A DNA stretch of 64,000 bases, from NCBI GenBank assembly GCA_964431805.1, contig CAYSKV010000001.1:61698-125697 (forward strand). The letters run 5' to 3'. The notes under the pieces were generated by a model. The model saw only the letters and a program-made list of their open reading frames with translations. It was not told the origin of the DNA and ran no database searches. Within the stretch, counting starts at the first letter, position 1, and the number at the start of each line of letters is the position of its first letter. Origin of the DNA: an uncultured Gammaproteobacteria bacterium. Lineage in GTDB: Bacteria > Patescibacteriota > Patescibacteriia > Patescibacteriales > GWC2-42-12. Both the position numbers and the translations under genes were made by a program. Shown piece by piece: positions 2,255 through 63,900 of the stretch.

Positions 2255-2962
2255 ATGCCGTATCTAAAATTTATATCCGACAAAAATTTAATTTCTGCCG
2301 TTGGAAAAGTAGTCAAAATAATAGAAATGACGGAACGTGAGGCGAGTAGTAATCTTCATAAAAATGTTATTGATCCTTTTTCAGCCTTGTTCCATGGCGT
2401 CACTCATTCAATAGCATACAAAGAATGGATAAAACAAGAAAAGGCCAGACAATCACAAAAAACAATGCAAAATGCCATAGGTGATTTTCATCAAGAAATA
2501 TTAGGTGCAATCCCTGGTTGGAAAAATCTCGGAGTTGGTGGAGGGTTGGATGTTGCAAACGATAAAATGAAAATTATTGCAGAAATAAAAAATAAATTTA
2601 ATACAACAAAAGGAAATCATAAGGTTGAAATATATAATGCCATAGAGTCAAAACTTAAATCAGAAAAATTTAATGGTTTTATTGGATATTATGTAGAAAT
2701 AATACCTCAGGCAAAAAGCATATACAACAAACCCTTTACCCCATCGGACAATAAGACCCACAAGAGAAAACCGAGCAAAAAAAATATCAGAGTAATTGAT
2801 GGTATAAGTTTTTATACTCTTGCAACCGGACGAAAATATGCCCTACAGGAACTATTTGAAGCGTTATCTCATATTTTAGTAGATGAATACAAATTTAAAT
2901 TAAGCAAAGAAGAAGCTAAAAAATATTTTGAATTATTTAAATTAGCCTTTTTAACTAAATAA
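2255..2962 (+). CDS. Putative type II restriction endonuclease (PD-(D/E)XK-like)
   Basis: 235-aa ORF directly upstream of a C5-methyltransferase. Candidate catalytic motif GLDV..(10 aa)..AEIKNK. Size and the NVIDPFSA region recall Eco47II-type enzymes from memory only (unverified). Confidence 0.55.
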   Translation: MPYLKFISDKNLISAVGKVVKIIEMTEREASSNLHKNVIDPFSALFHGVTHSIAYKEWIKQEKARQSQKTMQNAIGDFHQEILGAIPGWKNLGVGGGLDVANDKMKIIAEIKNKFNTTKGNHKVEIYNAIESKLKSEKFNGFIGYYVEIIPQAKSIYNKPFTPSDNKTHKRKPSKKNIRVIDGISFYTLATGRKYALQELFEALSHILVDEYKFKLSKEEAKKYFELFKLAFLTK

Positions 2963-2980
2963 CCATTGCCTAGGCAATGG
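2963..2980 (+). terminator. Perfect palindrome CCATTGCC-TA-GGCAATGG followed by TTATTT, between the R and M genes
   Basis: 8-bp GC-containing stem immediately after the stop codon, with a U-rich tail. Confidence 0.5.
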
Positions 2981-2985
2981 TTATT

Positions 2986-2994
2986 TGATATAAT
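2986..2994 (+). promoter_or_regulatory. Extended -10 promoter TGATATAAT for the methyltransferase gene
   Basis: TGnTATAAT match 29 nt upstream of ATG 3023. The same TGnTATAAT form recurs at other gene starts in this window. Confidence 0.5.
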
Positions 2995-2997
2995 TAT

Positions 2998-3016
2998 GAT
3001 AGATTATTAATCTATC
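2998..3016. promoter_or_regulatory. 19-bp perfect palindrome GATAGATTA-T-TAATCTATC (candidate operator)
   Basis: 9+1+9 perfect dyad lying between the -10 box and the start codon of the HTH-methyltransferase. Confidence 0.5.
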
Positions 3017-3022
3017 TTTTTT

Positions 3023-4276
3023 ATGAAAAAAAATCAATTTATAACCGCTGGAGAAGCCGCCCGTCGATTAGGTATTTCAATTGATACTATTAGAAGGTGG
3101 GACAAAAAAGGACTAATTAAATCTTTTAGAGATGAAAAAAACGATCGCATATTTAGTTTAGAAGAAATAAAAAGAATACAAAACAAAACTTACGGAGACA
3201 AAAAAAGTAAGTTTAAAATTTTAAAGAATAATAGAATGTCAAACTACACAGCGATCGAATTATTCGCTGGTGCGGGGGGCACTGCTTTAGGGATGGAAAA
3301 TGCAGGTATTGAGCATGTACTATTGAATGAGTATGACAAATATGCCTGCGAAACACTTCGGATTAATAAACCAAATTGGAATGTTGTCGAAAAAGATATA
3401 AGAGAACTAAAATTTTTTAATGGGCAAGCCGACATTGTTCAAGGAGGTTTTCCCTGCCAAACTTTTTCGCAAGCTGGTCGAAAAATGGGTTTTGAGGATA
3501 TACGAGGTACATTGTTTTTTGAGTTTGCGAGATGTGTTAAAGAAGTTAAGCCTAAAATTGCAATTGGAGAAAATGTCAAAGGATTGCTCAACCATGACAA
3601 TGGTAGAACAATTAAGACGATGGTGTCTGTTTTAGAAGAAATTGGATATCGAGTTAAATATAAAATTTTACGATCACAATATTTGGATGTTCCGCAAAAA
3701 AGAGAACGTCTTATAATTATTGGGGTTAGAAAAGATTTAAATATTCCTATTTCATTTCCAAAAGAAAAAGATTATATTATTCCTCTGCGCGAAGCATTCA
3801 GCAAATGTCCAAAATCTGAAGGCCAAAAATATCCAGAAAAAAAGAAAAAAATATTAGAATTAATTCCTCCTGGCGGATATTGGAGAGATCTTCCGGAAAA
3901 TCTTCAAAAAGAATACATGGGGGCAAGTTATTTCATGGGTGGCGGCAAAACTGGTATGGCAAGAAGATTGTCGTGGGACGAACCGTCTTTAACCTTGACT
4001 TGTAGCCCGGCTCAAAAACAAACTGAACGTTGTCATCCAAATGAAACACGTCCTTTGTCAGTGCGCGAATATGCACGAATTCAAACATTTCCAGATAGTT
4101 GGAAATTTTCAGGATCCGTTTCGCAGCAGTATAAACAAATAGGTAATGCTGTACCGGTAAACCTTGGATATCACATTGGCGACATGATAATTAAAATGCT
4201 TAACGGTGAAATTGAAGAAGAAAAAGATGAGGCGCTTATGTTTATTCAGCAAAAATTATTTGCTTTTGCTACGTAA
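3023..4276 (+). CDS. dcm: DNA (cytosine-5)-methyltransferase with N-terminal MerR/excisionase-type HTH domain
   Basis: C5-MTase motifs: I ELFAGAGG, IV GGFPCQTFS, VI GENVKGL, VIII QKRERLIIIG, X GNAVPV. The first ~70 aa carry ITAGEAARRLGISIDTIRRWDKKGLI, in the same frame with no intervening stop. Confidence 0.9.
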   Translation: MKKNQFITAGEAARRLGISIDTIRRWDKKGLIKSFRDEKNDRIFSLEEIKRIQNKTYGDKKSKFKILKNNRMSNYTAIELFAGAGGTALGMENAGIEHVLLNEYDKYACETLRINKPNWNVVEKDIRELKFFNGQADIVQGGFPCQTFSQAGRKMGFEDIRGTLFFEFARCVKEVKPKIAIGENVKGLLNHDNGRTIKTMVSVLEEIGYRVKYKILRSQYLDVPQKRERLIIIGVRKDLNIPISFPKEKDYIIPLREAFSKCPKSEGQKYPEKKKKILELIPPGGYWRDLPENLQKEYMGASYFMGGGKTGMARRLSWDEPSLTLTCSPAQKQTERCHPNETRPLSVREYARIQTFPDSWKFSGSVSQQYKQIGNAVPVNLGYHIGDMIIKMLNGEIEEEKDEALMFIQQKLFAFAT

Positions 4277-5759: not shown

Positions 5760-8056
5760 CGAGAAAGAAAACGACATCTTTTTTTAATATTTTTTTAATT
5801 GGAATAATTACGTTCCTAAGTTTTTTTATTTTTACTAATAGTAAGGCTTTTAGCGATACTAATAATGATTTTGCTTGCCCAGTTAAATCACAATTAGATA
5901 TTGGGGAGCGTAGTGTATTTAACAGGGTCGCCGATGAAATATTAGTAAAATTTAAAAATTCATCAAATCCGATAACTATAAAAATCGCTCAAGCGGGGGA
6001 TTTAAATGAGTTTTTAAATTACTATAATAATTTATCGGAAGTAGATTACGCCGAACCAAATTACATTTACAAAGCTTCTATAATTCCGTCTGATACGCTT
6101 TTTAATAATCAATGGTATTTACAAAAAATTAAAGCTGTTGAAGCATGGGATAATACAAGAGAAAGTTCTAATATTGTTATTGCTATTTTAGATTCAGGCG
6201 TGCAAATAAATCACCCCGATCTCGCTAGTAATATTTGGGTGAATAAAAAAGAGGTCGCTAATAATGGCATTGATGATGATAGAAATGGTTTTATTGATGA
6301 CGTTAATGGTTGGGATTTTGTTAATAATGTGCCTGACCCGGCGCCAAAATTTAAAACTGGATTTACTGAAGATGGAATTTTACATGGCACTATTATCGCC
6401 GGTATTGCGGCGGCTTCTGGCAATAACGCGGCTGGCATCGCTGGTATAACTTGGAAAGCGAAAATTATGCCGCTTAAAGTTTTAGATGATAAAGGCGATG
6501 GCAGCGCTTCAAAGGTTATAAAAGCCATTGATTACGCCATTGCTAATGGCGCCAATATTATTAATTTAAGTTTTGTTGGTTTTGGTTATAGTAAAGGTTT
6601 AGACGACGCGGTTAAACGCGCTTATGACGCTGGTTTAATCGTAGTAGCCGCCGGAGGCAACGAAGTCGGCCAGGGCGATGGTTATTATCTAGATGAAACT
6701 CCAATGTATCCAGCTTGCTTAGACGGCGCTAGTGGCGAAAATAGAGTAATCGGCGTAGCCGCAACCGATACCATGGATCAAAAAGCGACTTTTTCCAGTT
6801 TTGGCATTAAATGCATTGATATTGCCGCGCCAGGAGTTAGCGTTTTTAGCACAGTAGTTTATTCGCCGGATAATTATATAGGCGATCAACCATTTAATAA
6901 ATATTATGATGGTTATTGGTCTGGCACATCCGTCGCCGTGCCTATGGTAAGCGGCGCTTTAGCGTTAATCGAAGGCGCTAATCCAGCTTTAAATCGAGAA
7001 GAAATTTTAAAAGCCTTATTAGATAATGCTGATAATATTAGTCGAGTAAATCCAAATTATTTAGGTAAGCTTGGCAAAGGCAGATTAAATGTGGCTTCGT
7101 CGATTAATTACGCTAAAAGCATATTAAATAGTAAAATTGAAAAATTATTAATCGGTCCGAAAAGTGGCATGGCGAGTTTAGTAAAAATTACTGATCAAGA
7201 CGGAAAAAAGGATAACGAATTTTATGCTTATGGCGCTAGCTTTAAGGGCGGGGTTAATTTTTCTTCCGGAGATATAAATGGCGACGGCCAAGATGAAATT
7301 ATTACTGCGGCTGGTTTAGGCGGCGGACCGCACATTAGAATTTTTGACACTAAAGGAAAATTAGTGAGCCAGTTTTTTGCCTTTAGCAACACTTTCCGCG
7401 GCGGCGTGAATATTGCCAGCGCCGATATAAACAATGACGGTAAAGATGAAATTATCGCGGCTCAAGCTTCGGCAGGCAATTCAGAAATAAAAATTTTTAA
7501 TAATAAAGGGGGATTTTTAGGTTCATTTTACGCCTATGATAAATTTAAAGGCGGTATAAATATAGCTGCCGGCGATATTAATGGCGACGGGGAAGACGAA
7601 ATTATTACAGGTTTATCTGCTGGAAAAATTCCTGAAATAAAAATTTTTAATTCTAGCGGAGCTTTACGCGGTCAATTTTTGGCTTACGTTAAAACTTTTA
7701 CTGGCGGCGTAAGGGTAGCCGTAGCTAATGTTAGAAATTCTTCCGGTAGCCATAAATCAGATATTATTACGGCTCCGGAAAAAGGCGGCGGTCCGCATAT
7801 AAAAGTTTTTGATAGCAAAGGAAATTTATTTTCTCAATTTTTTGCTTTTAGCAGTACTTTTCGCGGTGGAGTTAATTTAGCTAAAGCCGACGTTGATAAT
7901 GACGGTTTTGACGAAATAATAACCGGCGCCGGTTCGGGAGGCGCGCCGCATGTCCGTGTTTTTAAAGCTAGCGGAAAACTTACTGGTTCATTTTACGCTT
8001 ATGAAGATAATTTTAGCGGAGGCGTTAGTGTTGGTAGCATAAAAATTAATAAATAA
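5729..8056 (+). CDS. Secreted subtilisin-like (S8) serine protease with C-terminal FG-GAP/VCBS-type repeats
   Basis: Catalytic contexts AILDSGV (Asp), HGTIIAG (His), GTSVAVPMVSG (Ser). N-terminal hydrophobic anchor. 6-7 repeats of GGVNxxxGDINGDGxDEIIT in the last ~300 aa. Confidence 0.9.
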   Translation: MINFLFRFNGARKKTTSFFNIFLIGIITFLSFFIFTNSKAFSDTNNDFACPVKSQLDIGERSVFNRVADEILVKFKNSSNPITIKIAQAGDLNEFLNYYNNLSEVDYAEPNYIYKASIIPSDTLFNNQWYLQKIKAVEAWDNTRESSNIVIAILDSGVQINHPDLASNIWVNKKEVANNGIDDDRNGFIDDVNGWDFVNNVPDPAPKFKTGFTEDGILHGTIIAGIAAASGNNAAGIAGITWKAKIMPLKVLDDKGDGSASKVIKAIDYAIANGANIINLSFVGFGYSKGLDDAVKRAYDAGLIVVAAGGNEVGQGDGYYLDETPMYPACLDGASGENRVIGVAATDTMDQKATFSSFGIKCIDIAAPGVSVFSTVVYSPDNYIGDQPFNKYYDGYWSGTSVAVPMVSGALALIEGANPALNREEILKALLDNADNISRVNPNYLGKLGKGRLNVASSINYAKSILNSKIEKLLIGPKSGMASLVKITDQDGKKDNEFYAYGASFKGGVNFSSGDINGDGQDEIITAAGLGGGPHIRIFDTKGKLVSQFFAFSNTFRGGVNIASADINNDGKDEIIAAQASAGNSEIKIFNNKGGFLGSFYAYDKFKGGINIAAGDINGDGEDEIITGLSAGKIPEIKIFNSSGALRGQFLAYVKTFTGGVRVAVANVRNSSGSHKSDIITAPEKGGGPHIKVFDSKGNLFSQFFAFSSTFRGGVNLAKADVDNDGFDEIITGAGSGGAPHVRVFKASGKLTGSFYAYEDNFSGGVSVGSIKINK

Positions 8057-11661: not shown

Positions 11662-12819
11662 ATGATTATGAAAATTTGTTTAATAAATAACTTATATAAA
11701 CCATTTAACCGAGGCGGCGCGGAAAAGATAACCGAAACCATAGCGAACGGCTTAATAAAAGCCGGGTATGAAGTTTTTATAATTACTACTAAACCATGTG
11801 GTAAAAAATTGCCGACCACGAATTCTGGGCTAAAAATTTATTTTTTAGATTCTTGTTATTACAATTTAAATAAACTACCTAAATTTTTTAGATTTTTTTG
11901 GCAAATTTGGAACATGTTTAATTTTATAAATTATTTTAAAATAAAAAATATTTTACAAAAAGAAAAATGCCAGGCAGTTATTACTAATAATTTAATGGGC
12001 CTAGGATTTTTAACGTCATTAGCGATTAAAAATTTAAAAATTAGACATTTACATATTACGCATGACATTCAATTAATTCATCCGTCTGGTTTAATGTATT
12101 ACAGCGAGGAGGGGATAATAGAAAGTTTTTTTGCTAAAATTTATTCTGGTTTTTGCCGTCGTCTATTTAATTCGCCATCAGCAGTTATCTTTCCATCAAA
12201 TTGGTTAAAAGATTTATATATAGAAAGAAATTTTTTCGCTAAGTCAAAGATTAATATTTTGCCTAACCCAGTTGAAGATACGCCGGAGCAGGCGAGAGAA
12301 CAATCAGATAGTTTTAAATTTTTATTTTTAGGGCAAATTGAAAAACATAAAGGCATATTTTTATTAATAGACGCTTTTAATAAAATTAAAGATAAATATC
12401 CGGACGTTAAATTAATTATAGTTGGCGATGGTTCTAAAATTAAGCAGGCGCAAGAAAAAGCGGCAAGCAATAATAATATTAATTTTTTAGGCTGGCCGGG
12501 CGATGAAATAGCTAATAAATTGCTATTTTTAGCTAACTGCCTAATTTACCCCTCGTTAGTGTACGAGAACTGTCCTAACGCCATTCAGAGGGCTATAACG
12601 GCTAATTTACCGGTCTTAGCCAGCGATTTAGGAGGTATTCCTGAGTTATTAAATAAAAACGCCGGCATATTATTTAAGCCAGCGAATGTTAATGATTTAG
12701 CTGAAAAAATGGAGTGGATGATTAAAAATAAAAATAATTTACAAATTTCTAACCAAATTAATTTCAAAATTGAAATTTATATAAAAGAATTAGAAAAATT
12801 TATTTCCTCTCATATTTAA
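11662..12819 (+). CDS. Glycosyltransferase family 1
   Basis: GT-B layout with N-terminal GGAEK and C-terminal ENCPNAIQRAITANLPVLASD. Confidence 0.8.
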   Translation: MIMKICLINNLYKPFNRGGAEKITETIANGLIKAGYEVFIITTKPCGKKLPTTNSGLKIYFLDSCYYNLNKLPKFFRFFWQIWNMFNFINYFKIKNILQKEKCQAVITNNLMGLGFLTSLAIKNLKIRHLHITHDIQLIHPSGLMYYSEEGIIESFFAKIYSGFCRRLFNSPSAVIFPSNWLKDLYIERNFFAKSKINILPNPVEDTPEQAREQSDSFKFLFLGQIEKHKGIFLLIDAFNKIKDKYPDVKLIIVGDGSKIKQAQEKAASNNNINFLGWPGDEIANKLLFLANCLIYPSLVYENCPNAIQRAITANLPVLASDLGGIPELLNKNAGILFKPANVNDLAEKMEWMIKNKNNLQISNQINFKIEIYIKELEKFISSHI

Positions 12820-14725
12820 ACATATAAATTTGCCCATTATCAATCGCTTGCCAGCTATCGGCAGAAAATTTAGCTTCATCTAATATTTTAATAAACGCCC
12901 ACCAGTATTTATTTAAAACAAAATAACCAACATCTACGCCAGCCAAATCCATGGCCGCAAACATTGTTTCGCGGCTTGGTTTTTTATATACCATATCTAA
13001 ATAATATTGATAAAGCGGCGAGCTGGTAGGGATTGGGTAATAAAAAATTTGCTCGGCGCCGTAATATTTTTTAAAACCGAATTGGCTTAAAGCCGCGGCG
13101 CTAACTTGCTGATTAGCTAAAACAATATAATCCTTTTTAGCGTCTTTATTAATAAAGTCAACGGTTTTAATATCTGAATTTGAAACTGCGTAACCGCGGG
13201 TATTAAAATAATTGTCATAGCGCGGATAAGTTATGTATAAAGCAGAGGTAATTAATAAAGATAAAAATACAATAGAACTTATAATAATAAAATTATTTTT
13301 CTTAGCTATTTTTTCAAATAAGGCATAAATTAAAATTATAAAAAAAGGCAAAAGGAATAAACAGGCAATTAATAAAATTCTTTGCGGATAATCATCTCTT
13401 TCGTAGTTTATTAAAAAAGAAAATGGCAATTTAATAGTAATTAAATATGAAATAAATAAAGCAGATGCGACCCAGAAATAAAGCCATAAAATTTTACATT
13501 GTTCGCGGTGTTTCCAGGCGATAAAAATTCCACCTAAGGCGAGTAAAGCAATAATAATTTTTAGATTAAAGCCGTATAAATAAACAAAATTTAAGATAAA
13601 ATTTTCTTGCCCCGGGATATTAAATTGCAACAGGCTTATATCTTGCGGTAAATTGCTGCTTGAGTTGGTTGGCGCTATTTGCCTATTTAAAAAATAAAAT
13701 AAAATCGGCAAAACAAAAATAGTAATAATAGTTAAAAGGGGATAAAAATATTTTTTTATTTTAATTTTATCGCTGTGATAAACCGCTAAAAATGCGCTAA
13801 ACAGCAAAGCTGGGATACCTGCGATCGGCTGGGTTATGGCCGCGGCTAATGATAAAAGCAAGATAGTTAAAAAATCGTAGAAATTTTTGCAACATAAGCC
13901 TAATAAAATCGCCAAAATTAAAAAAAGATAAGCTAAATTTTGCGGCGTGGTAACGATTAAAAAGGAGAAACCTAAAGTCAATAAAGCTAAAATTAATATT
14001 AAGTTAAGACTTGCTGAATTAAACCAAGATTTTAAAATGCGCCATAAAGTAAGCGGTAAAAATAAAGCGGCTAAAACTGGTAGTAAAAATTTATCAAGCG
14101 AAACTATTGGTACAGCAGTTATTTTATGAAAAATCACTACCAAGGCGTATTGCCCTAAATAATAAAGCGGCTTAGGATCAACCGCGCCAGTTTTATCAAT
14201 TAAATCTTCCGTGGCTTGATGAATAAATGAATCATAACCGTAGCCGAGTTTATAAACTATTAGCGCGACCGAAAAAGACAAAAAATAATAAAGCATTACG
14301 AGCGGCAAAGCGAATTTTTTGTTAATTATAGAGTTACCGATTAAAATTATAGTTGTTAGGCAGTAAAGAATAAAAAAGTATTTCGGTACGACTTGCCAAG
14401 GAGAAATTATGGCGTTAACGGTTTGGTGGTTAAATAAAACGTAAAAGCAACTAAGTAAAAGTGCAAAACCTAAAACAAAAAGCGCAAAATTTATTAATCT
14501 AAATTTATCATTTTTAGGCTGCTCGGTTTTGGCGTATCTTGAAATTTTGCTTGCTAAAAGACTAAAATATTGTATAATAACAAAAGAAATAACCGCTAAA
14601 ATTAAGCTAATTATTACGCCTAAATTGTTAAGCGAATAGAAACGATAAACCAAGCCGCCCCAGATCGAAATCAGGCAGATTAATATTAAGAGTGAATTAA
14701 CGATATTCAATAGTTTATTATTCAT
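12800..14725 (-). CDS. Polytopic membrane protein of unknown function with C-terminal soluble domain
   Basis: 641-aa ORF with more than 12 hydrophobic segments. Embedded in a glycan locus; its stop overlaps the convergent GT1 gene by 20 nt. Confidence 0.75.
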   Translation of the reverse strand: MNNKLLNIVNSLLILICLISIWGGLVYRFYSLNNLGVIISLILAVISFVIIQYFSLLASKISRYAKTEQPKNDKFRLINFALFVLGFALLLSCFYVLFNHQTVNAIISPWQVVPKYFFILYCLTTIILIGNSIINKKFALPLVMLYYFLSFSVALIVYKLGYGYDSFIHQATEDLIDKTGAVDPKPLYYLGQYALVVIFHKITAVPIVSLDKFLLPVLAALFLPLTLWRILKSWFNSASLNLILILALLTLGFSFLIVTTPQNLAYLFLILAILLGLCCKNFYDFLTILLLSLAAAITQPIAGIPALLFSAFLAVYHSDKIKIKKYFYPLLTIITIFVLPILFYFLNRQIAPTNSSSNLPQDISLLQFNIPGQENFILNFVYLYGFNLKIIIALLALGGIFIAWKHREQCKILWLYFWVASALFISYLITIKLPFSFLINYERDDYPQRILLIACLFLLPFFIILIYALFEKIAKKNNFIIISSIVFLSLLITSALYITYPRYDNYFNTRGYAVSNSDIKTVDFINKDAKKDYIVLANQQVSAAALSQFGFKKYYGAEQIFYYPIPTSSPLYQYYLDMVYKKPSRETMFAAMDLAGVDVGYFVLNKYWWAFIKILDEAKFSADSWQAIDNGQIYMFKYERK

Positions 14726-17050: not shown

Positions 17051-18181
17051 ATGGAAAACACAAAAAAAATAAATCGTATTGGCATAGACGCTCGGTTTTA
17101 CGGCCCAATAGGCAAGGGGTTGGGTAGATATACCCAGGAAGTTGTTGATAACATAATAAAGCTTGATCAAAAAAATAAGTACATTATATTTTTGCGTAAA
17201 GAAAATTTTTCTGATTTTAAATGTGATGACGTAAGAATAAAGAAAGTATTGGCTAATATAAAATGGTACGGTTTAAGCGAACAGATAATTTTTCCTTTTT
17301 ACATTCTTCGCGAGCGGTTAGATCTAATGCATTTTCCGCATTTTAATGTACCGATTTTTTGCCCGGTTAAATTTATTGTCACTATTCACGATTTAATTTT
17401 AATAAAATTTCCGACTTTGCGCGCCACTACTTTAGGGCCGGTCGTTTATAAAATAAAAAATTTAGCTTATAAAATTGTGATTTCATTAGCGGTTAAGCGA
17501 GCTATGAAAATTTTAGCGGTTTCAGAATATACAAAAAAGGCTGTTGTCGAACAATTTAAAGTTGATTCTAAGAAGGTCGTTGTAACTTATGAAGGCGTAG
17601 CCGAATTTTTAAAAACCCCTTTTAGTAAAGACAAAGAAAGTAATTTTAATAATAAACCTTATTTATTATATGTCGGCAATGGTTACCCGCATAAAAACTT
17701 AGAAGGTTTAATAAAAGTTTTTTCCGAAATAAATAAAACTAGACCAGAATTAAAATTAGTTTTAGTCGGCAAAGAAGATTATTTTTATAGTCGATTAAAA
17801 CAATACGCTAAAAATTTTTCTAATAACATTATTTTCCCTGGTTATGTTTCTGATGATAAGTTAAAAGAGTTATACGCTAACGCGGCTCTTTATATTTTCC
17901 CATCGTTTTATGAAGGCTTTGGCTTGCCGCCGCTTGAAGCTATGGCGCATGGCTTAACGGTTGTAAGTTCGGATAAAACTTGCTTACCGGAAATACTCGG
18001 TGAAGCTGCTTTATATTTTAACCCTGACGATGAAATGGATATGAAAAATAAAATTGAGCAAGCGTTGGCTAATGAAAAATTGCGTGAGAATTTAATAAAT
18101 AGGGGATATGAGCAGATAAAAAAATATAGTTGGAAAGATTGTGCGGAGAAAACATTAGAGGTTTATAAAAATAGTTTATAA
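17051..18181 (+). CDS. Glycosyltransferase family 1
   Basis: EGFGLPPLEAMAHGLTVVSSD; GT4-like N-terminal region. Confidence 0.85.
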   Translation: MENTKKINRIGIDARFYGPIGKGLGRYTQEVVDNIIKLDQKNKYIIFLRKENFSDFKCDDVRIKKVLANIKWYGLSEQIIFPFYILRERLDLMHFPHFNVPIFCPVKFIVTIHDLILIKFPTLRATTLGPVVYKIKNLAYKIVISLAVKRAMKILAVSEYTKKAVVEQFKVDSKKVVVTYEGVAEFLKTPFSKDKESNFNNKPYLLYVGNGYPHKNLEGLIKVFSEINKTRPELKLVLVGKEDYFYSRLKQYAKNFSNNIIFPGYVSDDKLKELYANAALYIFPSFYEGFGLPPLEAMAHGLTVVSSDKTCLPEILGEAALYFNPDDEMDMKNKIEQALANEKLRENLINRGYEQIKKYSWKDCAEKTLEVYKNSL

Positions 18182-18186
18182 TAATT

Positions 18187-18227
18187 TAAAAAAAGAGAAC
18201 CGAGTCGTATAGACCTCGGTTCTTTTA
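18187..18227. terminator. Bidirectional rho-independent terminator
   Basis: AGAACCGAG (18196-18204) pairs with CTCGGTTCT (18215-18223). An A-run lies upstream and a T-run downstream, between convergent genes. Confidence 0.8.
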
Positions 18228-18260
18228 ATTGTTACCTCCTAATTTTGCCAGCGGGTGATT

Positions 18261-19100
18261 TCACCCTACGGCCGATAATTTTTCGATTCGGAAGACTTTC
18301 TCAACCCCTATTGCCTCCAATTTGAAGGAAGTGGTTTTCTCGCCTTCGTTGAGATGGGGGATGGTCAAGTTTTTATATTTGACGATTTCTCCCTTCTCGA
18401 ACGTAACCCATTCATGCTGGACGACGAGATTTCTTCTGTGAAATCTGGCGATGCCGGTAGCCGTAGCCAGCGCGCCGATACCGTTTGCCTCGTTCCACCA
18501 GATTACCCGACCTTGCTTTGTTACCAAACCTTCAGTCGTAATAGCCGGTTTAGGTTCATAACTTTTCGTCGATGCGAGATAGCTGGGCTTAATCAACCCT
18601 TGCAGGATTTTTCTCAGTGATTCCCAAGCCGGCATAGCAGGAACCACAACCTTATTCCCCTTACGAAATGCATATTCGTCCCATACGGGTTGCGTGGAAA
18701 GATAAAATACTCCTCCACGCTTGGTAATGGCTATCTCCCAGATCCGGAAATGGCCAGTTACTAAAATCTCCAGCAACTTGAAATGATTATCCGGATACTT
18801 CGTGTATGGGCCTTTGGTGCCGCCATCAAACACCGGAATATTGCGGATGTATATTTTGATATTATCTTCTTCTGAGTGGTCACGTTTTAAAGTGACATCC
18901 AGCTGCCCGACTCTTTCCAAACCGTAAAATTTGCCGAAAGAACAAGCGGCCTGGTTAATGGTTAGTGTAACAGCGATTGTGCCCGGCGTTAAAACGCCGA
19001 GATATCCGTTTTCCAGAACTTTGATTTCTCTTCCTTTCTTATCCCTCAAAATAATTTCCACACCTTTACCAATTTCTTCAATAATCCTTGAGTCAATCAT
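18261..19100 (-). CDS. Hypothetical protein, GC-rich foreign-looking gene with possible C-terminal cold-shock-like OB fold
   Basis: 279-aa ORF. Sample lines give 40-57% GC against ~30% background. Strong SD (GGAGGA, 5-nt spacer). The C-terminal GRVIWWNEANGIGAL..ARFHRRNLV..FEKGEIVKY resembles the CSD pattern. Confidence 0.7.
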   Translation of the reverse strand: MIDSRIIEEIGKGVEIILRDKKGREIKVLENGYLGVLTPGTIAVTLTINQAACSFGKFYGLERVGQLDVTLKRDHSEEDNIKIYIRNIPVFDGGTKGPYTKYPDNHFKLLEILVTGHFRIWEIAITKRGGVFYLSTQPVWDEYAFRKGNKVVVPAMPAWESLRKILQGLIKPSYLASTKSYEPKPAITTEGLVTKQGRVIWWNEANGIGALATATGIARFHRRNLVVQHEWVTFEKGEIVKYKNLTIPHLNEGEKTTSFKLEAIGVEKVFRIEKLSAVG

Positions 19101-19242
19101 AGAGTTCCTCCGAAAAATAGTTATCCTGCTTGGGTTGGTTATTTGGTTAACGTTTTATTTACTTTGCAAAAGAACAATTGTAACTTTTTATAATAACATA
19201 TTGTATCAAATATGTCAATAATTGTAAAATAAATAAATATAT

Positions 19243-19272
19243 TTGTCTGAAAATATTTATTTATGTTATAAT
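19243..19272 (+). promoter_or_regulatory. Promoter TTGTCT-18 nt-TATAAT with TG extension (TGTTATAAT)
   Basis: Located about 45 nt upstream of ATG 19318. Confidence 0.45.
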
Positions 19273-19317
19273 AATGTTGATAACTGAACCAAAATTTTTT
19301 TTGTTTTAAGAAATTAA

Positions 19318-22056
19318 ATGTCTTCAAATAAATTCCAAAATTTAAAAGTTAATTCGGACGTAAAATCGTCTCGTTTTGTTATAGATTTAAAGAAAGATTT
19401 AGAGCAAAATAACAACATTAAAGAAGTAAAAAAACGAAGTATAGAAACAAGGGTAGAGGAGAGGCTCGAGAAAATAGCTGAAATTGATTACAAAGGAGCT
19501 TTAAAAAAGGGGAAAGATAAAAGTGGGGCTTATTTTTCTAGTATAAAGAAAACCTTAAAATCAGAAATTTTTTCATTGCCAAAAATCTCTCTCAACGTTA
19601 AAAAAGATCATGAAAAAAAGAGTAAACTTTCCGCATCGCCAGTCGCGCATAGCAATAGTTATTTAATTTTCTTATCAAATCAACTAACGCTTATTGGTTT
19701 AGGAAAATTATTATATATTGTTTTAAAAAAAGTCTTTATTCTATTTTATAAAATTTGTTACGCGGCTGGTTGGGTAATAATGTTTATTTTAAGATTAGTT
19801 TACTTTTTTGTTTTAGCTATAATTAAACCGATTATTAAAATCGTAAAACCTTTATTTTTTAAATCCCAAGTCGCTCTTTCCGGAACTTTACATGCTTTAC
19901 CAACCGGCTACCATTTAACGCAATCCGTTACTTTAGCCGCATCTGCAAAATTATTACATGGATTTAAAACGCGAGCAAAAGAAAAAAGAGAGAATACCGA
20001 ATCATTCAGAACAGAACCGATATATAACACTAAGTTTGCTTTATTAAAGCCAGTTTTAGTCTTCGCCGGCATATTATTAATTATAATTTTACCGGTTAAA
20101 GCGTTTACTTATTATAAAGTTATTGATGATGCTAAGGGTAAAGTTTTAGGCGCTAGCGAAAGCGCTATAGATGATTTAATTTCTGCAGGACAATCGGCGT
20201 TAGGTTTAAATTTTAATCAAGCCGGGCAAGGCTTTGAAAACGCCAGCAATAATTTTTTAAACGCGCAAAATGAACTCGAAAAAATTAATGGTTTAATATT
20301 TTCTATAGCTTCAATTTTACCTGACAAAAATATGCAGCTAGCCGCCGCCAGTAAAAATATTTTGCGCGCCGGCGAAGCGAGCGCTAATGCGGGTAAAAAT
20401 TTAAGCTTAGCCATGGAAAGTATTTTTAGTTATAAAGAAAATAGCACTAATAGTATTTTAGAAAATTTAAGTTTACATGGACATAACGCCATAAATAATT
20501 TAACTGAGTTAGACGAGGCATTAAATCAAATAGATAGCGAAGTCATTCCGGAAGATTACCAAAACCAATTTATTTTATTAAAACAAAAAACCGGCGAACT
20601 TAAACGCGGCTTAGCGGAATTTATTAACTTAACTGATAGCTTGGGCGATTTTTTAGGCGCCAGCATGGATAAGCGTTATTTATTAGTCTTCCAAAATAAT
20701 TCTGAACTGCGCGCTTCGGGCGGCTTTATCGGCAGTTTTGCTTTAATAGATTTTTCTAAAGGCGAGATTAAAAATATAGAAGTGCCGGGCGGCGGCAGTT
20801 ATGATACCGAAGCGGGTTTCTTAAAAAAAATAAAAGCGCCAGAACCTTTAGGATTAGTTAGAGCTGATTGGCATTTCTGGGACGCTAACTGGTGGCCTGA
20901 TTGGCCGACTTCGGCGTCTAAATTGGCTTGGTTTTATGAAAATTCCGACGGCTCAACGGTTGATGGCGTGATTAGCTTTACACCTACAGTAATTGAAAAT
21001 TTATTAAAAATAATTGGCCCGATAGATTTAAAAGATAAATATGGTTTAGTTATTGATGCAGATAATTTTTGGCTAGAAACGCAAAAATTAGCCGAGCAAA
21101 AACCAGACATAACTAAAGAGCCTAAAAAGATAATCGGCGATTTAATGAATAAAATTATTGAGGAGTTGCCTAAACGATTAAATAAAGATAATCTAGTGCC
21201 TTTATTTAAAACGATTGAAAAATCGTTAGCTAGTAAAAACATTTTATTTTATTTTACGGACGAAAGCTTAGAGGCTAAAGTTGATGATTTAGGTTGGAGC
21301 GGTAGAATCAAAAACACAACCGGTGATTATTTAAATGTGATTAATTCTAATATTGCTGGCGGTAAGAGCGATCGAAAAGTTAAACAACAAATTATTCATC
21401 AAGCCGAGGTTCAGCTGGATGGCTCAATTATAGATAATTTAATTATTAGACGCGCTCATGAAGCAGTAAATCGCGAGCTATTTTCTGGCGTTAGAAACGT
21501 TGATTGGTTAAGAATTTATGTGCCGCTCGGATCCGAGTTACTAGAAGTTAGCGGTTTTAAACCGGTAGATAAAATATTTTTTGATAAAGAAATCGCTGGC
21601 CTAACCGACGACCCGGAAGTTTTAGCTAGCGAAGGCCAGGCGCAAACCGACGAATCGAGCGGTACAAAAATTTACAACGAGTTTAATAAAACCGTTTTTG
21701 CTAATTGGTCGCAACTAGACCCAGGAGAAACTATTGAAATTAAAATAAAATATAAATTACCTTTTAAATTAACCGATAAAAAACAACCAGCCAGTCAAGA
21801 ATTTGCAAATCAGTTACTTGAAAAATTTGGTTCAATTTTAAATCCAAGGGAGAAAAATTTATATTCATATTCTTTGCTAGTGCAAAAACAACCAGGCATG
21901 AATTCGTCGACTATAGAGAGCGAGCTAAGATTAGGCGATAACTTTAAATCAATCTGGAAATACCCGAATAATTTAAATTCTAATTTAAATGGCTGGTCAA
22001 TAACCGAAGATTTAAACCAAGACGAAATAATGGCTATAATGGCAGAGGAAAAATAA
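19318..22056 (+). CDS. DUF4012 domain-containing membrane protein
   Basis: FQNNSELRASGGFIGSFALIDFSKGEI core motif. N-terminal hydrophobic segments. Paralogue of the fragment at 2-487. Confidence 0.8.
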   Translation: MSSNKFQNLKVNSDVKSSRFVIDLKKDLEQNNNIKEVKKRSIETRVEERLEKIAEIDYKGALKKGKDKSGAYFSSIKKTLKSEIFSLPKISLNVKKDHEKKSKLSASPVAHSNSYLIFLSNQLTLIGLGKLLYIVLKKVFILFYKICYAAGWVIMFILRLVYFFVLAIIKPIIKIVKPLFFKSQVALSGTLHALPTGYHLTQSVTLAASAKLLHGFKTRAKEKRENTESFRTEPIYNTKFALLKPVLVFAGILLIIILPVKAFTYYKVIDDAKGKVLGASESAIDDLISAGQSALGLNFNQAGQGFENASNNFLNAQNELEKINGLIFSIASILPDKNMQLAAASKNILRAGEASANAGKNLSLAMESIFSYKENSTNSILENLSLHGHNAINNLTELDEALNQIDSEVIPEDYQNQFILLKQKTGELKRGLAEFINLTDSLGDFLGASMDKRYLLVFQNNSELRASGGFIGSFALIDFSKGEIKNIEVPGGGSYDTEAGFLKKIKAPEPLGLVRADWHFWDANWWPDWPTSASKLAWFYENSDGSTVDGVISFTPTVIENLLKIIGPIDLKDKYGLVIDADNFWLETQKLAEQKPDITKEPKKIIGDLMNKIIEELPKRLNKDNLVPLFKTIEKSLASKNILFYFTDESLEAKVDDLGWSGRIKNTTGDYLNVINSNIAGGKSDRKVKQQIIHQAEVQLDGSIIDNLIIRRAHEAVNRELFSGVRNVDWLRIYVPLGSELLEVSGFKPVDKIFFDKEIAGLTDDPEVLASEGQAQTDESSGTKIYNEFNKTVFANWSQLDPGETIEIKIKYKLPFKLTDKKQPASQEFANQLLEKFGSILNPREKNLYSYSLLVQKQPGMNSSTIESELRLGDNFKSIWKYPNNLNSNLNGWSITEDLNQDEIMAIMAEEK

Positions 22057-29126: not shown

Positions 29127-29525
29127 ATGAAAAAAATTATTTTAGCTGTTGATGATAACGGAAACGATCAAGAATTGCTAGAGTTGCATTTGGAATATTC
29201 TTTTAGAAAATGCTCATTCTCGAAAAAAAATATGCCGTTGGTTATAATAGCAAAAGACGGTGAGGAGGCGTGGAATATTCTCACCGAAGAAAAAGTTACA
29301 CCGCACGTAATGATAGTTGACTATAAAATGCCAAAAATTGACGGGATTGAACTGATAAAAAAAATCACGAAAGAACTTGTAATTCATCCAATGTTCGTGA
29401 TTCACAGTGACCACGGTTTGGCAGAGGATGAAGCCAAAAAAATAAATTGCAGATTTATACCAAAAGGAGAGAGAAATAAATTTTTTCAACTAACCGAAGA
29501 AATTGGTCTTTTTAGCCCTCTTTAA
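29127..29525 (+). CDS. Stand-alone response regulator receiver domain (CheY-like)
   Basis: Acidic pocket VDDNG, phospho-acceptor D in MIVDYKMP, conserved K in FIPKG. Strong SD GGAGGAGGGG at 29113-29122. No output domain and no kinase nearby. Confidence 0.8.
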   Translation: MKKIILAVDDNGNDQELLELHLEYSFRKCSFSKKNMPLVIIAKDGEEAWNILTEEKVTPHVMIVDYKMPKIDGIELIKKITKELVIHPMFVIHSDHGLAEDEAKKINCRFIPKGERNKFFQLTEEIGLFSPL

Positions 29526-52506: not shown

Positions 52507-53901
52507 TTAAAAATAATTTTTAATATCTTCTGCCGTAATTTCTCTGCAGAATCTTCTCCATTCTTCGTCGCCGAGCTTCAGTAAAGCATTAATAATAAAG
52601 TTTCCCAAACTTGACCTGAGCATCTTGCTGCCCTTCATAAGCAATAAAGCTTCAAGTAAATTACCGGGCAAGCTTAGCACACCTTCATGATCTTTATAAA
52701 GATTGCGCTTACGACGGCAAGATTTTAGGCGCAGTTTTTCTTTAATGCCCGCTAACCCAGCAGCCAGCATAGCGGCGAACGCTAAATAAGGATTGCAGGT
52801 CGGATCAGGCGCTCGATACTCAACCCTTATCTTATTTGTTCCTTCCGAATGGCCCCTGGCTAAAGCAGTCCTATTAAGCCAATCGAAATACACATAAGTA
52901 GGCGCTTCTGCATCCGGCACAAGCCGCTTATAAGATATGGGTAAACGATTGGTTATAGCAGTAATATCCCTGGCATATTTTAACAGCCCGGCAATATAGC
53001 TCTCGCCCAACATCGACAGACAGTTCTTCCTTCTTTTGTCAAAGAAAATGTTCTTTGTTTCTTCGATTAACTCACCTTTTACTACCCGGCTGATAACTGC
53101 AGCGAGATTCTGATGCACATGCATACCGCTGCCATTTACATCTGCTTTAAATTTAGGTATAAAAGAAACTCGAAAACCATACTTTTTGGCAATGGCTTCG
53201 ACAACATACTTTATAGTCATCACACCATCAGCAATAGCCATAATATCCCCATGGCCAAAACCAATCTCATGCTGAAAGTCGGTCACTTCAGTATGGTATT
53301 TTTCTTTCTTCAAACCCATTACGCCCAGAAATTCAAGCATTTCCTTTAAAGCTTTATCTTCTCTTTCTTTAGGAGAAATGAAATAATGATTATTCTTTAT
53401 TAGTGGGTCAAGATAAATTTTTAAATAATCATATTCTTCAGGCACAAGCAAAAATTCAACTTCCGGCGCAAAATGAGCTTTTATTTTCTTGACGGTGGCT
53501 TTAGGATAGCGCCGCTGAACTTCTTTTTTCAGCGTTTTATTCATCTTTTTTGTCAGGCTTCTTAATACACCCCTAGGACATGCCTCAAAAGGTTCTAGAG
53601 GTGCTCCTTGTTTCTTCGGGGGGTAATAAATGTCGCATATTACCCTAGCAGTATCGGGAAGCCAAGGGATAGGGCAAAATGTAGAAAGATCTGGTACCAA
53701 AACCATATCGCTTTCGGTCGGCGGTATGATCTTACCAAAAACTGATGATCCATCGACGCTGGTTGTTCCTGTACCCAACAATTGTTCCGCCGTTACTGTA
53801 ACTTCCCTAATATTACCCTGGATATCCGTAAATTGACATTTAATAAATCTAATTTGCGGATATTTTATTAAAATCTCTGCCAAATTAATTTTTTGTGCCA
53901 T
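52507..53901 (-). CDS. glnA: Glutamine synthetase family protein (type I-like)
   Basis: NGSGMHVHQNL, SYKRLVPDAEAP, RAPDPTCNPYLAFAAML. Sample lines give ~40-52% GC. Strong SD AAGGAGGAAAAGGGGGATT before the ATG. Confidence 0.8.
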   Translation of the reverse strand: MAQKINLAEILIKYPQIRFIKCQFTDIQGNIREVTVTAEQLLGTGTTSVDGSSVFGKIIPPTESDMVLVPDLSTFCPIPWLPDTARVICDIYYPPKKQGAPLEPFEACPRGVLRSLTKKMNKTLKKEVQRRYPKATVKKIKAHFAPEVEFLLVPEEYDYLKIYLDPLIKNNHYFISPKEREDKALKEMLEFLGVMGLKKEKYHTEVTDFQHEIGFGHGDIMAIADGVMTIKYVVEAIAKKYGFRVSFIPKFKADVNGSGMHVHQNLAAVISRVVKGELIEETKNIFFDKRRKNCLSMLGESYIAGLLKYARDITAITNRLPISYKRLVPDAEAPTYVYFDWLNRTALARGHSEGTNKIRVEYRAPDPTCNPYLAFAAMLAAGLAGIKEKLRLKSCRRKRNLYKDHEGVLSLPGNLLEALLLMKGSKMLRSSLGNFIINALLKLGDEEWRRFCREITAEDIKNYF

Positions 53902-60925: not shown

Positions 60926-63900
60926 TTATTTCGCGCACCTAAAACCAATATTAGTTGATTGTTCGCTTGGCGAATGAGATAAATCAAGACCGTAAATTCC
61001 GGTCGAGCCGCGAACAAAAGCTTTTAAACCCGATGTTGAGCCAACATAAATTTTTCCTATATTATTATCTACGTCAGTTAAATAATAATCCGGCGCTATA
61101 TCTAAACCTTTATAATCGGATACATCGCTATATTCAAACCAATTATCTGCTAGCGGCGTTACCGGCAACCCAGCCACGGTTACATTTTTATTAGTCCACT
61201 CACCTACCTCACCCACTAAATTGTTAATTAAGTTATCATTGTTTAATTTGTAAGATATGGAAGTGGTGGCGAGTTGCATGCCAGCAATATTGGTATCGCT
61301 ATCATTGTCAGGATTTTGCAAAATATTTTCAGCGATAGTTAACCATTCATTTTCACCAATTAAGTGATAACCCGTGCCTAGAGTTTGGCAAGCGATTTGA
61401 GCTTCGCCCTGAGAGATATTAGTTTTGATTTGGTCTAATTCATCTTTCATTAAATCTGCTTGGACGCAGAAACCAGGCAAGGTGCCATATTTAGCTGAGC
61501 CAGGCACCCAGACAAAACCGTCTTCGCAATAACCCTCGAAAGCTCCGGCCACAACTTTGCCTTCAACGCCTAAATCAGCCATGGTTTCATCAACCGCTGA
61601 GTCTAGGGCGTTAGAGCAATAACCGCCGGCGCAGAGCATAATACGACCGTCAACTAACATTGAGCCTGCGACTTTAACTTCACCGCTTTGAGCTATATTC
61701 ATAATAGAGACGCCGTTAGCTTGAAAATCTGCGATATCGCCTGAACCTGATTGATTAACTATGAATGCGGTTTTAGTTGAGGAAGCGGTTATTTCGGTTA
61801 GTTCAACAATCTTAACTTCTGGCTCTTGGCCTGGTTCTGAGACTGAATCTTTACCGATTATGATGCTGCCGTTTTCATCAAACGACATTATATTCTCACC
61901 ATTCTGGTTTTGTAAAAATAGAGCTTGTGGAGTAATACCGCTGGCGGCTTCGGTAAAGCGGAAATTGTTGGCAAAAATTAAATCACCGACGTAGGAGTTA
62001 GTGGCGTGCAGAGTGCCTAAAACATCTAAATTACTGGCGATGGTTGAAGTACCGGTTCCGCCGACTTCGAGGAGGCCTGAGATATAGGCTGAATTATATT
62101 TATCGCCAGCGAGTAGATAGACCGGGGTGCTTGAACCAACCGTCAGAAGAGCTTGAGGAGAAGTTGTGCCGATGCCGACGTTGCCGCCTGCTTGAAAGGT
62201 GGTAACAACATCAGTAATATCAACATTATTATTATCATCCGCATTATCATTAAGAATATACATATCGCCTCGACCCCGAGTATTATCAGTTCGTTTAAAT
62301 GCAATTCCAGCCTTTGAATAATTAGCGCCTCCTCCCGTACCAAGATAACCCAACATTAAACCAGTCCATTGATTTTGCGTAATGTCTCCACCAATATGAG
62401 CCGCAAAAGAGTTGCCTGAAGTTGCCACAGTCAATTTATTTAATGGGGTCGTAATTCCGATGCCGACGTTAGTATTTTTTACTGTCAAAGTATCAGTAAA
62501 AGTGTTAGTCCCGGTTGGCGTAGCCAATGTTATTCTGGCTGATTGATAATTATTACTATCAAAAGTAGAATAGATGCGACCGCTATTATAAATTGTTCCT
62601 GGCCCGTTTGAAAGTTCACCCATAAAAACTATATCTTCTTGGGTAGATGCAGATCCTGATTTTTGCAAAGTTAAAAGGTTTTGCGCATTTGCCGTTCCAA
62701 TGCCTACATTACCATTTGCCAACACAGTCATTAAAGTTGAAGTTGATGTACCAGCCGTTGTTGAAGCTATAGTGAATAGAGGCGTGTTAACTGCTGTTGA
62801 TACAGAATTAGAAATAGATAACATAGAATAAGGCGAAGTCGTACCAACGCCCAATCTACCAGCTATAGCTGTATTAGGAATTGCCGAGTCATCAATAGTC
62901 AAAGCTGTACCCATTGTAGTTCTTAAATTTATTCCGGTCCAACCAAATAAATTTAAACCCGTCCCATTAGGACTGCTATTATTTATTTCTGCAAATGTCC
63001 CCATATCTATTTTATTGGCTGTAATAGTGCTTATAGATAATCCGCCTGTCATATGAACAGTGCCATCCCAAGTCATATACATAGATGCATTATTGCCAAA
63101 TGAATTGTCAAATCTAAAAATATCTTGACCGGCATTACCTGTTGGCGTGGTAACATAAAATTTAGCCGTAGGATTGGCAGCTCCAATTCCCACATTCCCA
63201 TTATTCGTTACCATTAAATATGTTGATGTCGCCACGCCGGCGGTTGAAGAAGCAATTATAAATAATGGAGTAGACCCGCCCAAAGTATTTTCTATTGATA
63301 ATTTTGCGTAAGGAGAAGAGGTGCCAATACCGACGTTGCCGTTAGTTAAAATAGAAATTCTTTCATTACCAGCGCCAGAAGCAGAGTCAAAGATGGATAA
63401 TCTTCCGTCATCAGAATTTTTGATAGACCAGGTTGAAGTGCCGATGTTTAGCGTACCGAACCAACCTTCGTTCCAACGATAAGTAGAAGTGCCGATGTTA
63501 TAGGTTAAATTAGCGCTTGGTAGAATATCTCCAGAAACTAATAATCCAGAACTAGTAATTGTTCCGGTAGCGGTTAGATTACCGGCAATATAGGCATCGC
63601 CGATTACAGATAGTTTAGTAAATGGTGAAGTTGTGCCGATGCCGACGTTGCCGCCTGCTTGAAAGGTGGTAACAACATCAGTAATATCAACATTATTATT
63701 ATCATCCGCATTATCATTAAGAATATACATATCGCCTCGACCCCGAGTATTATCAGTTCGTTTAAATGCAATTCCAGCCTTTGAATAATTAGCGCCTCCT
63801 CCCGTACCAAGATAACCCAACATTAAACCAGTCCATTGATTTTGCGTAATGTCTCCACCAATATGAGCCGCAAAAGAGTTGCCTGAAGTTGCCACAGTCA

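Follow-up and report, generated by a model that had tools for sequence, protein, structure and literature searches.

Introduction

The locus described here raises the question of whether a GC-rich gene, standing alone on the minus strand between a surface-glycan locus and a DUF4012 gene, has been brought in from elsewhere, and of what its product may do. The gene lies in a 64,000-nucleotide stretch of contig CAYSKV010000001.1 (the window) from a member of the Patescibacteria, or candidate phyla radiation (CPR), in which genomes are tiny and accessory genes are mostly dark matter. It is here called X, and is flanked by a GT4 glycosyltransferase gene (17051-18181) and the DUF4012 gene (19318-22056). 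In our study X is read, with moderate confidence, as an intact and independently transcribed accessory gene which has been horizontally exchanged into a hypervariable slot between these two genes. The analysis has also defined the unnamed family to which X belongs, comprising about 300 clusters, in which an N-terminal domain of no known fold is fused to a divergent cold-shock domain (CSD); this architecture is undescribed for bacteria in the libraries searched. Nothing found here overturns current understanding. The coordinates of the features are collected in Table 1.

Results

The slot between GT4 and DUF4012 in related genomes

The DUF4012 protein was used to retrieve 80 sister loci from the GTDB species representatives. 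These loci are titled as metagenome-assembled genomes of Patescibacteria, Parcubacteria or Falkowbacteria, and some as "uncultured Gammaproteobacteria", the latter being probably a labelling artefact. A homologue of X was detected in 0 of the 80. The gene order in the ten nearest loci is a 641-amino-acid (aa) protein, a methyltransferase, PMT_2, GT4, the slot, DUF4012 and then proteins of 673, 377 and 804 aa. When the slot was compared over 11 genomes (ten relatives and the window), at least eight different contents were seen, the empty site included. The window carries X at this place, and L011 carries a tRNA synthetase gene together with a homologue of X, here called X'. L013, which is the closest GTDB relative and has flanks 82-97% identical to those of the window, carries genes for proteins of 337 and 222 aa and no homologue of X. 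Proteins of 356 aa (L014), 339 and 213 aa (L017), 466 and 255 aa (L021), 177 aa (L020) and 172 aa (L022) are encoded in further relatives, L018 and L019 have other contents, and in L023 the slot is empty, with 81 bp between the GT4 and DUF4012 genes. The original prediction, made from the window's sequence alone, had proposed a horizontal acquisition and a search for presence or absence in sister genomes; the other genes in the slot of the closest relative and the lack of a homologue in the sister loci are in agreement with it.

The slot cargo forms at least six unrelated orphan families, and its proteins have no identity in Pfam, PADLOC, PHROG or PDB; in PADLOC, none of the 10 cargo proteins other than X matched at E values up to 0.1. 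Most of the cargo genes are led by a Shine-Dalgarno (SD) sequence and are GC-richer than their host. In the clade as a whole, SD-led genes make up 4.5% and their GC content at third codon positions (GC3) is higher by 0.13 (p = 1e-5). Moreover, a homologous promoter block stands ahead of the minus-strand cargo in the window, L011, L014 and L022, and in the window and L014 that cargo also precedes the same terminator. The locus is a compact hypervariable slot beside an envelope and glycan locus, where orphan genes turn over between close relatives, and it offers a natural starting point in the search for strain-specific factors of phage or symbiont-host interactions. DUF4012 proteins are enriched in CPR and have a reported link to loci for capsule and exopolysaccharide (PMC6744442), which fits the position of the slot at the edge of a surface-glycan locus.

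Some of the orphan genes were also seen at other loci. A family of 151-222 aa is present in the slot or beside DUF4012 in L013 (9058-9726), L017 (9222-9863), L041 (9144-9803) and L040 (8663-9118); its three longer members are GC-rich with a zinc-ribbon-like N-terminus, and an SD-like sequence stands upstream in 4/4. Another family, of 350-393 aa with a Cys-rich C-terminus, is found in L014 (8705-9775), L043 (153-1205) and L028 (2429-3610), is SD-led in 3/3, and gave no sequence match in Pfam, PADLOC, PHROG or PDB. A possible resemblance of the L014 slot protein to MYG1/DHH proteins was unsupported by the Pfam and PDB sequence searches. The 641-aa protein of the conserved gene order is encoded in the window at 12800-14725 on the minus strand, opposite to the glycan locus in which it lies; it is without a Pfam match and is kept in 10/10 relatives at 61-97% identity.

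Table 1. Positions of the features of gene X, its flanking signals and related loci (window coordinates unless a locus is named)
Feature	Position	Strand	Remarks
Gene X	18261..19100	-	279 aa, ATG start, TGA stop; GC-rich; unnamed family
All-beta N-terminal domain	18591..19073	-	~aa 10-170; modelled alone pLDDT 93.8, pTM 0.87
Divergent C-terminal cold-shock domain	18291..18521	-	~aa 194-270; from structure and family profile
X promoter (TTGACA, 17 nt, TATTAT, extended -10 TG)	19190..19218	-	11/12 consensus positions
DUF4012 promoter (TTGTCT, 18 nt, TATAAT)	19243..19272	+	Divergent from X; kept in all relatives including empty L023
Predicted 5' leader, ~80 nt	19101..19183	-	From predicted -10 to ATG distance
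Shine-Dalgarno GGAGGA	19106..19111	-	5 nt ahead of X ATG
Small hairpin GGGUGAAAUCACCC over stop codon	18253..18266	-	5 bp; minimum-free-energy and centroid folds
Orphan AGGAGGT in 3' untranslated region	18234..18240	-	20 nt past X stop
Bidirectional intrinsic terminator hairpin	18193..18226	.	Common to GT4 gene and X; host sequence
Cargo-specific segment	18250..19173	.	No homology to relatives carrying other slot cargo
Family genes by tRNA genes	L103 2062-3359; L107 2752-3624; L108 1920-1996; L098 7754-7828		

Composition and ribosome-binding site of X

The sliding GC content is 0.42-0.505 within X and 0.19-0.35 in the adjoining sliding windows, as had been predicted for this minus-strand gene. 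Its GC content is 0.451 (GC1 0.489, GC2 0.379, GC3 0.486), and that of the whole window is 0.333. Taking the 56 other open reading frames (ORFs) of at least 100 aa in the window as the reference set, X has a z score of +3.4 for GC and of +4.9 for GC3 (the others having 0.270 ± 0.044, with a maximum of 0.385), and its synonymous-codon log-likelihood (z = -5.2) is the most atypical in the window, so that the codon-usage check suggested beforehand also marks it out. The total GC of X is not unique, being equalled at the 840-bp scale by the mreB region (~0.7 kb) and by a stretch at ~61.4 kb; therefore the true outlier is its third-position composition and codon usage. An expression-linked codon bias was considered as the source of this GC content and ruled out, because the ribosomal protein genes S13 and S9 of the same window are AT-rich at third positions (GC3 0.20-0.31); these two genes have no SD. 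Selection for mRNA structure in the window copy is likewise unsupported, the folding z score of the X mRNA being -1.16 and that of the mreB control -1.13.

The SD just ahead of X, which other genes here were expected mostly to lack, is indeed rare, since a GGAG core was found in only 3/57 window ORFs (X, 29127-29525 and 52507-53901). The remaining two genes, at 29127-29525 (+) and 52507-53901 (-), may also be acquired or fast-evolving. One of them encodes a receiver-domain protein whose L013 orthologue is 68% identical, with neighbours at 86-100%, and the other encodes a glutamine synthetase of raised GC (0.40; GC3 0.36). A further ORF of more than 1022 aa (60926-63994, minus strand) runs past the window end, with GC 0.41, locally 0.46, and is without a Pfam match.

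Soundness of the assembly

Ten contigs found via the X protein match the window at 99.8-100% and come from different samples and two assembly sources. Both junctions of X are spanned, at 100% identity, by 8/10 of these contigs, again from different samples and assemblers, and three more contigs (L114-L116), found via the exact GT4 protein, run on into X. In all, the locus recurs in more than 15 independent contigs. No alternative cargo was seen in the same population, as all contigs with the exact GT4 protein continue into X. A chimeric join of DNA from two organisms might be suspected from the abrupt GC shift at both ends of X and from the termination of two contigs (L005 and L006) at 18250, where the homology to L014 also stops. 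This explanation is effectively refuted by the eight independent contigs that cross both junctions, by L114-L116 leading into X, and by the homologue arranged alike in L011/L012.

Expression signals around X

The expression unit of X consists of an apparently strong sigma-70-type promoter, a predicted leader of ~80 nt, the canonical SD, the ORF and a 3' untranslated region (UTR) running into the bidirectional terminator of the host. The promoter block is homologous in L014, L022 and L011, and in L014 and L022 the cargo behind it differs. Between them, the X and DUF4012 promoters (19192-19301) make up an imperfect inverted repeat of 52 nt (I1 and I4), whose arms are 71% complementary overall and 92% within a 13-nt core, and the empty site of L023 holds the DUF4012 promoter alone. 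The X promoter seems to have arisen as an imperfect mirror copy of the DUF4012 promoter. By blastn, the homology between the window and L014 reaches up to 18226 on the left (18249 by eye) and from 19174 on the right, and the breakpoints are 18179 and 19168 against L022 and 18181 and 19304 against L013. The part of the leader downstream of ~19173 is therefore cargo-specific, the homology of L014 and L022 stopping at 19174 and 19168, respectively. Past the X ORF there are only the 5-bp stop-codon hairpin and the host terminator, a GC-rich inverted repeat (I6) with U-runs on both strands which is kept in L014.

The orphan AGGAGGT past the stop codon was predicted to be the cut-off start of the next gene of a donor operon. 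The motif is present as described and has no ORF behind it, no start codon (ATG, GTG or TTG) being suitably spaced from it. The window contains 12 copies of the AGGAGG hexamer, where 11.1 ± 3.4 would be expected, so the motif is notable by its position only. At the equivalent place in L011, GGAGGT forms the 3' arm of the terminator hairpin of X' (-26 kcal/mol, z = -5); in the window the 5' arm for such a hairpin is missing, and the 13-nt GGAGGTAACAATT, which contains AGGAGGT, is an indel relative to L014. Because of the hairpin arm in L011 and the GGAGGTAACAATT indel, the motif is probably the vestige of a terminator stem that belonged to the cassette itself. This would account for it better than a truncated downstream gene, and the donor-operon proposal, which also agrees poorly with the monocistronic organization seen throughout the family (see below), is unsupported.

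A 10-nt direct repeat, AAAAATAGTT, stands at 18167-18176 and 19113-19122, on either side of the segment with the terminator, X and its SD; insertion microhomology or chance in AT-rich DNA could account for it. No Rfam structured RNA or tRNA was found in the window. Many host genes (in the window and in L013-L092) have TATAAT within ~10 nt of the start codon, a sequence pattern which points to mRNAs with no leader or a very short one as a common feature of these Patescibacteria.

The L011 copy and other members of the family

X' of L011 occupies the same slot and strand as X, is SD-led and has its own terminator. Its gene-body GC is 0.51-0.55, compared with ~0.40 for its host. X and X' share 41% aa identity with a nonsynonymous divergence (dN) of 0.50, whereas their flanks share 72-79% with dN 0.14-0.18. 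Thus, a same-locus homologue does exist, for which the original prediction had recommended a search, but it is not of native composition, being as GC-rich as X, and it leaves the proposed horizontal acquisition unrefuted. The enlarged 580-bp intergenic region between X' and DUF4012 contains an inverted repeat pair of the CATTGCGAG...GAAGCAATC type at L011 2990-3180.

Seventeen family loci were recovered from metagenomes. The family gene is GC-richer than its flanks in most contexts and GC-poorer in none. The GC contents of gene and flanks are 0.53 and 0.33 in L094, 0.42 and about 0.30 in L099, 0.62 and about 0.39 in L107 (GC3 0.88 for the refined coding sequence), 0.66 and about 0.41 in L108 (GC3 0.90), and 0.50 and about 0.33 in L109, where the gene is partial at the contig end. 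The difference is modest in L095 (0.41 and 0.34-0.38) and L103 (0.43 and 0.37-0.40), and in L097, L098 and L105 the gene is at host level. In nearly all members the gene is preceded by a -35 TTGACA that is perfect or close to it, an extended -10 and a leader of 60-110 nt, and in most also by an SD; all the members seen are monocistronic, each with a promoter and a terminator of its own. The SD cannot then be taken as the mark of a foreign donor, as had been assumed earlier, for together with the long leader and strong promoter it is a trait of the whole family.

The neighbours of the family gene are not conserved; among them are Lgt, SdpI, PadR, glycosyltransferases, an RNase H-like protein, HtrA and TGT. 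A tRNA gene is present within 500 bp of the family gene in 3-4 of the 7-8 independent contexts, a proportion above the ~1-6% that a random gene would be expected to show. In L103 the family gene stands between tRNA-Ala(GGC) and tRNA-Ala(UGC), upstream of TGT. A large serine recombinase with Resolvase, Recombinase and Zn-ribbon domains is encoded at L108 397-2103; it has host GC and adjoins tRNA-Pro and the family gene of GC3 0.90. In L097 an ORF of 223 aa (7170-7841; GC 0.31), present also in L105 and absent from L098, lies between tRNA-Val and the family gene, and is a further small indel beside a member of the family.

Two sister pairs allowed rates to be compared. In L097/L098, where the gene is syntenic, X has dN 0.033 and a synonymous divergence (dS) of 0.127 against dN 0.008-0.040 and dS 0.11-0.25 in the flanks, and its GC3 is 0.46/0.42 against 0.40-0.52. 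In L107/L108 the X proteins are 74% identical (dN 0.197, dS 0.48) with GC3 of 0.88/0.90; the available flank, a GT2 fragment of 89 codons, has dN 0.029, dS about 1.1 and GC3 0.42/0.47. The L108 copy (2462-3262) folds far more stably than its dinucleotide shuffles, with z = -7 from 20 shuffles only. The GC offset of the family, which persists in two sister-lineage pairs, is relevant to the rate at which foreign genes ameliorate and to the question whether composition itself can be selected.

Protein family and predicted structure

X was unmatched in Pfam (E up to 10), NCBIfam, PHROG and PADLOC (E up to 10). A word-indexed homologue search returned X itself and one 41%-identical protein, and a profile of 60 sequences returned 3 proteins, so that the family becomes visible only by exhaustive search. 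Such a search over 1.84 billion representatives gave 295 clusters at E<=1e-3 and 141 at E<=1e-10, clusters being defined at 50% identity. The earlier statement that the product belongs to no recognised family thus stands as far as the curated libraries are concerned, none of which names it, and falls in that a sizeable family exists. Most members are of 255-280 aa. The 60-sequence alignment contains the conserved blocks YPxNNxRLL, WEIALISQxGxFFLTxQ, GRVLWWNxAQGxGAI and ARVHW and no cluster of catalytic-type residues; near-invariant residues of the N-terminal domain are G32, G35, N105, G116, E122, F132, Q137, P154 and W159. The motif WE[IV][GA]ITMR occurs in 5/151 proteins, including window X and the L011 copy. 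The dN values of the other family pairs are lower than their dS values (0.033 vs 0.127; 0.197 vs 0.480). Our literature survey, covering DUF4012, SD usage and horizontal gene transfer in Patescibacteria and CSDs in defence, found nothing specific to X.

The AlphaFold2 model of X is of high quality (pLDDT 93.8, pTM 0.88) and consists of two domains. For the N-terminal domain, compared with PDB and BFVD both within the whole chain and by itself, the best Foldseek match in PDB had E = 0.045 with TM <=0.30, BFVD gave no match, and a profile search against PDB sequences found no relative; as modelled, the domain appears to be previously undescribed and without a detectable relative of known structure. 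The C-terminal part superimposes on 5xv9 with TMt 0.77, a root-mean-square deviation of 2.9 and Foldseek probability 1.00, and also on 7f3l, 6kug and 5ytt. The family profile matched 35 distinct CSD sequences in PDB at E<=1e-3, the best being a Thermotoga Csp (3.4e-8), and PF00313 was matched by 37/60 members at E<=1 (best 2.1e-9), with X alone giving no Pfam match. The cold-shock-like C-terminal pattern noticed at the outset is borne out by these profile and structural matches (Thermotoga Csp E = 3e-8, 37/60 for PF00313, TM 0.77).

The nucleic-acid binding motifs of this domain are altered. The canonical RNP1 (K/R-G-F/Y-G-F-I) and RNP2 (V-F-V-H-F) are absent, the family consensus being Q-G-x-G-A-I and A-R-V-H-W. 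Equivalents of W8, F9 and H29 are retained and that of F30 in the family only, whereas F15, F17 and F27 are lost. Since most of RNP1 and RNP2 has been replaced, the predicted binding of single-stranded nucleic acid through the CSD is plausible but not assured.

Discussion

Origin of gene X

Horizontal exchange would have brought X between two conserved envelope-related genes, GT4 and DUF4012, with the exchange likely to have taken place among Patescibacteria or from an unknown GC-richer pool; horizontal gene transfer among Patescibacteria has been reported to be common (PMC12455944). Several observations weigh against this account. The window locus has no mobility gene, att-like repeat or target duplication, only the short AAAAATAGTT pair, no integrase or transposase was found among the neighbours of X, and no donor was found. 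The L097/L098 family gene has host composition and normal rates, so the family is not always foreign. Within sister pairs the offsets in GC do not differ, and they are still present where the flank dS is saturated, which is as compatible with selection on composition as with repeated import from GC-rich donors. With regard to the product, X has no Pfam CSD score at E up to 10, its RNP1 and RNP2 are degenerate (NGIGAL, ARFHRR), and it has no PADLOC or PHROG match, so that a defence role is without direct support.

Some of these points would be explained if X were a long-resident native gene, with a high GC maintained at the level of the gene or its mRNA by selection or a biased process. The copies in L011 and the window would then descend from one ancestral slot gene, and the protein would just be a fast-evolving one. 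The two copies share slot, strand, promoter block, subfamily motif and partly alignable UTRs, and their GC3 offset is +0.21 in both, in hosts of 0.28 and 0.43. The GC3 of 0.88/0.90 in the L107/L108 hosts of 0.42-0.47, together with an X dS of 0.48 against ~1.1 in the flank, looks as if synonymous sites in the gene were constrained, but that flank dS comes from 89 codons only. No context shows a negative offset, all being positive or zero; in L097/L098, however, the gene is at host GC. L013 and L014, which are nearer to the window than L011, have no X and carry other cargo, so vertical descent would need several replacements. Unrelated cargo families of the slot are GC-rich too, so the effect is not X-specific, and the mRNA of X in the window has no more structure than its control. 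Long residence is for these reasons considered unlikely. An origin as a prophage or plasmid remnant, or as a moron, is disfavoured and would be very improbable: foreign composition, a compact self-contained unit and the tRNA and serine-recombinase neighbours in L108 speak for it, whereas three motif sets found no relatives in IMG/VR, tblastn found none in 50,697 phage records (INPHARED) or 72,556 plasmids (PLSDB), and there is neither a PHROG match nor a phage gene nearby.

Horizontal exchange into the slot is thus kept as the preferred origin of X. A bolder and rather doubtful proposal concerns the slot itself, which may be a dedicated expression site where unrelated SD-led ORFs from a GC-richer pool are swapped behind a resident mirror-copy promoter. 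It would then be the analogue of an integron platform without a recognisable integrase, with the cargo GC kept high by selection on gene or mRNA rather than by recency.

Possible function of the product

The product of X is predicted to be a cytoplasmic two-domain protein, in which a helix and linker join the N-terminal domain to the CSD. The CSD may bind single-stranded RNA (or DNA), and the N-terminal domain, which is without obvious catalytic residues, may supply the contact to a partner or ligand, so that X would act as an RNA-level modulator and not as an enzyme. The location of X in a hotspot among orphan cargo, its patchy distribution, an aa change 3-7x faster than that of the flanks, and the tRNA and recombinase neighbours elsewhere suggest a strain-variable adaptive or conflict factor, for instance one acting against phage or in symbiont-host interplay, and not a housekeeping chaperone.

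A more specific form of this idea is that X is a single-gene anti-phage or conflict factor which senses or binds foreign single-stranded nucleic acid through its CSD. The hotspot in which X sits, where conserved genes enclose unrelated orphan cargo or, in one relative, nothing, the fast evolution (dN 3-7x that of the flanks), the patchy distribution, what appears to be a strong promoter of its own, and the tRNA genes and recombinase that adjoin family members elsewhere are all consistent with it. X and the other cargo are unmatched in PADLOC, however, there is no recognisable effector domain or catalytic motif, and no known defence genes lie nearby, and the proposal is accordingly held as a possibility on the doubtful side. 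It is slightly harder still to see X as a stress protein of the csp-like kind that serves as an RNA chaperone or regulates translation, is expressed from a long regulatory leader, is accessory but not engaged in conflict and is possibly linked to tRNA metabolism. Here the CSD homology, the stable vertical inheritance in L097/L098 and the neighbouring tRNA genes, TGT and RNase H-like gene can be cited, along with the strong promoter, the leader of 60-110 nt and the SD of most members, features which resemble those of cspA-type genes. Yet X has lost most of the canonical aromatic residues of RNP1/RNP2, hardly any close relative carries the gene, the protein evolves fast, and its large N-terminal domain has no counterpart in known Csp proteins.

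Comparison with known systems

The cold-shock proteins (CspA/CspB, PF00313) are single-domain proteins of ~70 aa, whereas X adds an N-terminal beta domain of ~170 aa and a linker. In comparison with Csp, RNP1 is changed from KGFGFI to NGIGAL and RNP2 from VFVHF to ARFHR. On the other hand, the model gives the C-terminal ~75 aa of X an OB-type barrel of five strands as in Csp, the family keeps the W-W/F-N, G-x-G and V-H-W positions, and the gene likewise has an apparently strong promoter, a long leader and an SD. A CSD joined to other domains, as in X, is also found in Unr/CSDE1, Lin28, Y-box proteins and the N-terminal CSDs of RNase R/II, and CSD456 of Drosophila Unr (6y6e) is among the Foldseek matches of X with probability 0.63. 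In contrast to these multidomain proteins, X has no zinc knuckles, RNB domain, S1 domain or CSD repeats, its N-terminal domain alone gives no CSD/OB match, and its lineage is bacterial CPR.

At the level of the locus, integron cassettes provide one parallel, in that individual ORFs of foreign composition come and go at a single site behind a fixed promoter, as in the slot. The slot differs in having no cassette array, and members of the X family elsewhere carry their own promoters. Among the annotated neighbours there is no IntI-type integrase, and nothing resembling attC was recognised, neither feature having been searched for with a dedicated model. The other parallel is with integration or defence hotspots between core genes, such as those of E. 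coli and Pseudomonas (PMC10121019, PMC10250203). The conserved flanks and variable, unrelated cargo of those hotspots are found in the slot as well, and so are the empty state, the atypical composition and the orphan genes. The slot differs in that its cargo is of 0-3 small genes with no known defence domain and no integrase or mobile-element backbone, and in that several unrelated minus-strand cargos use one resident promoter block.

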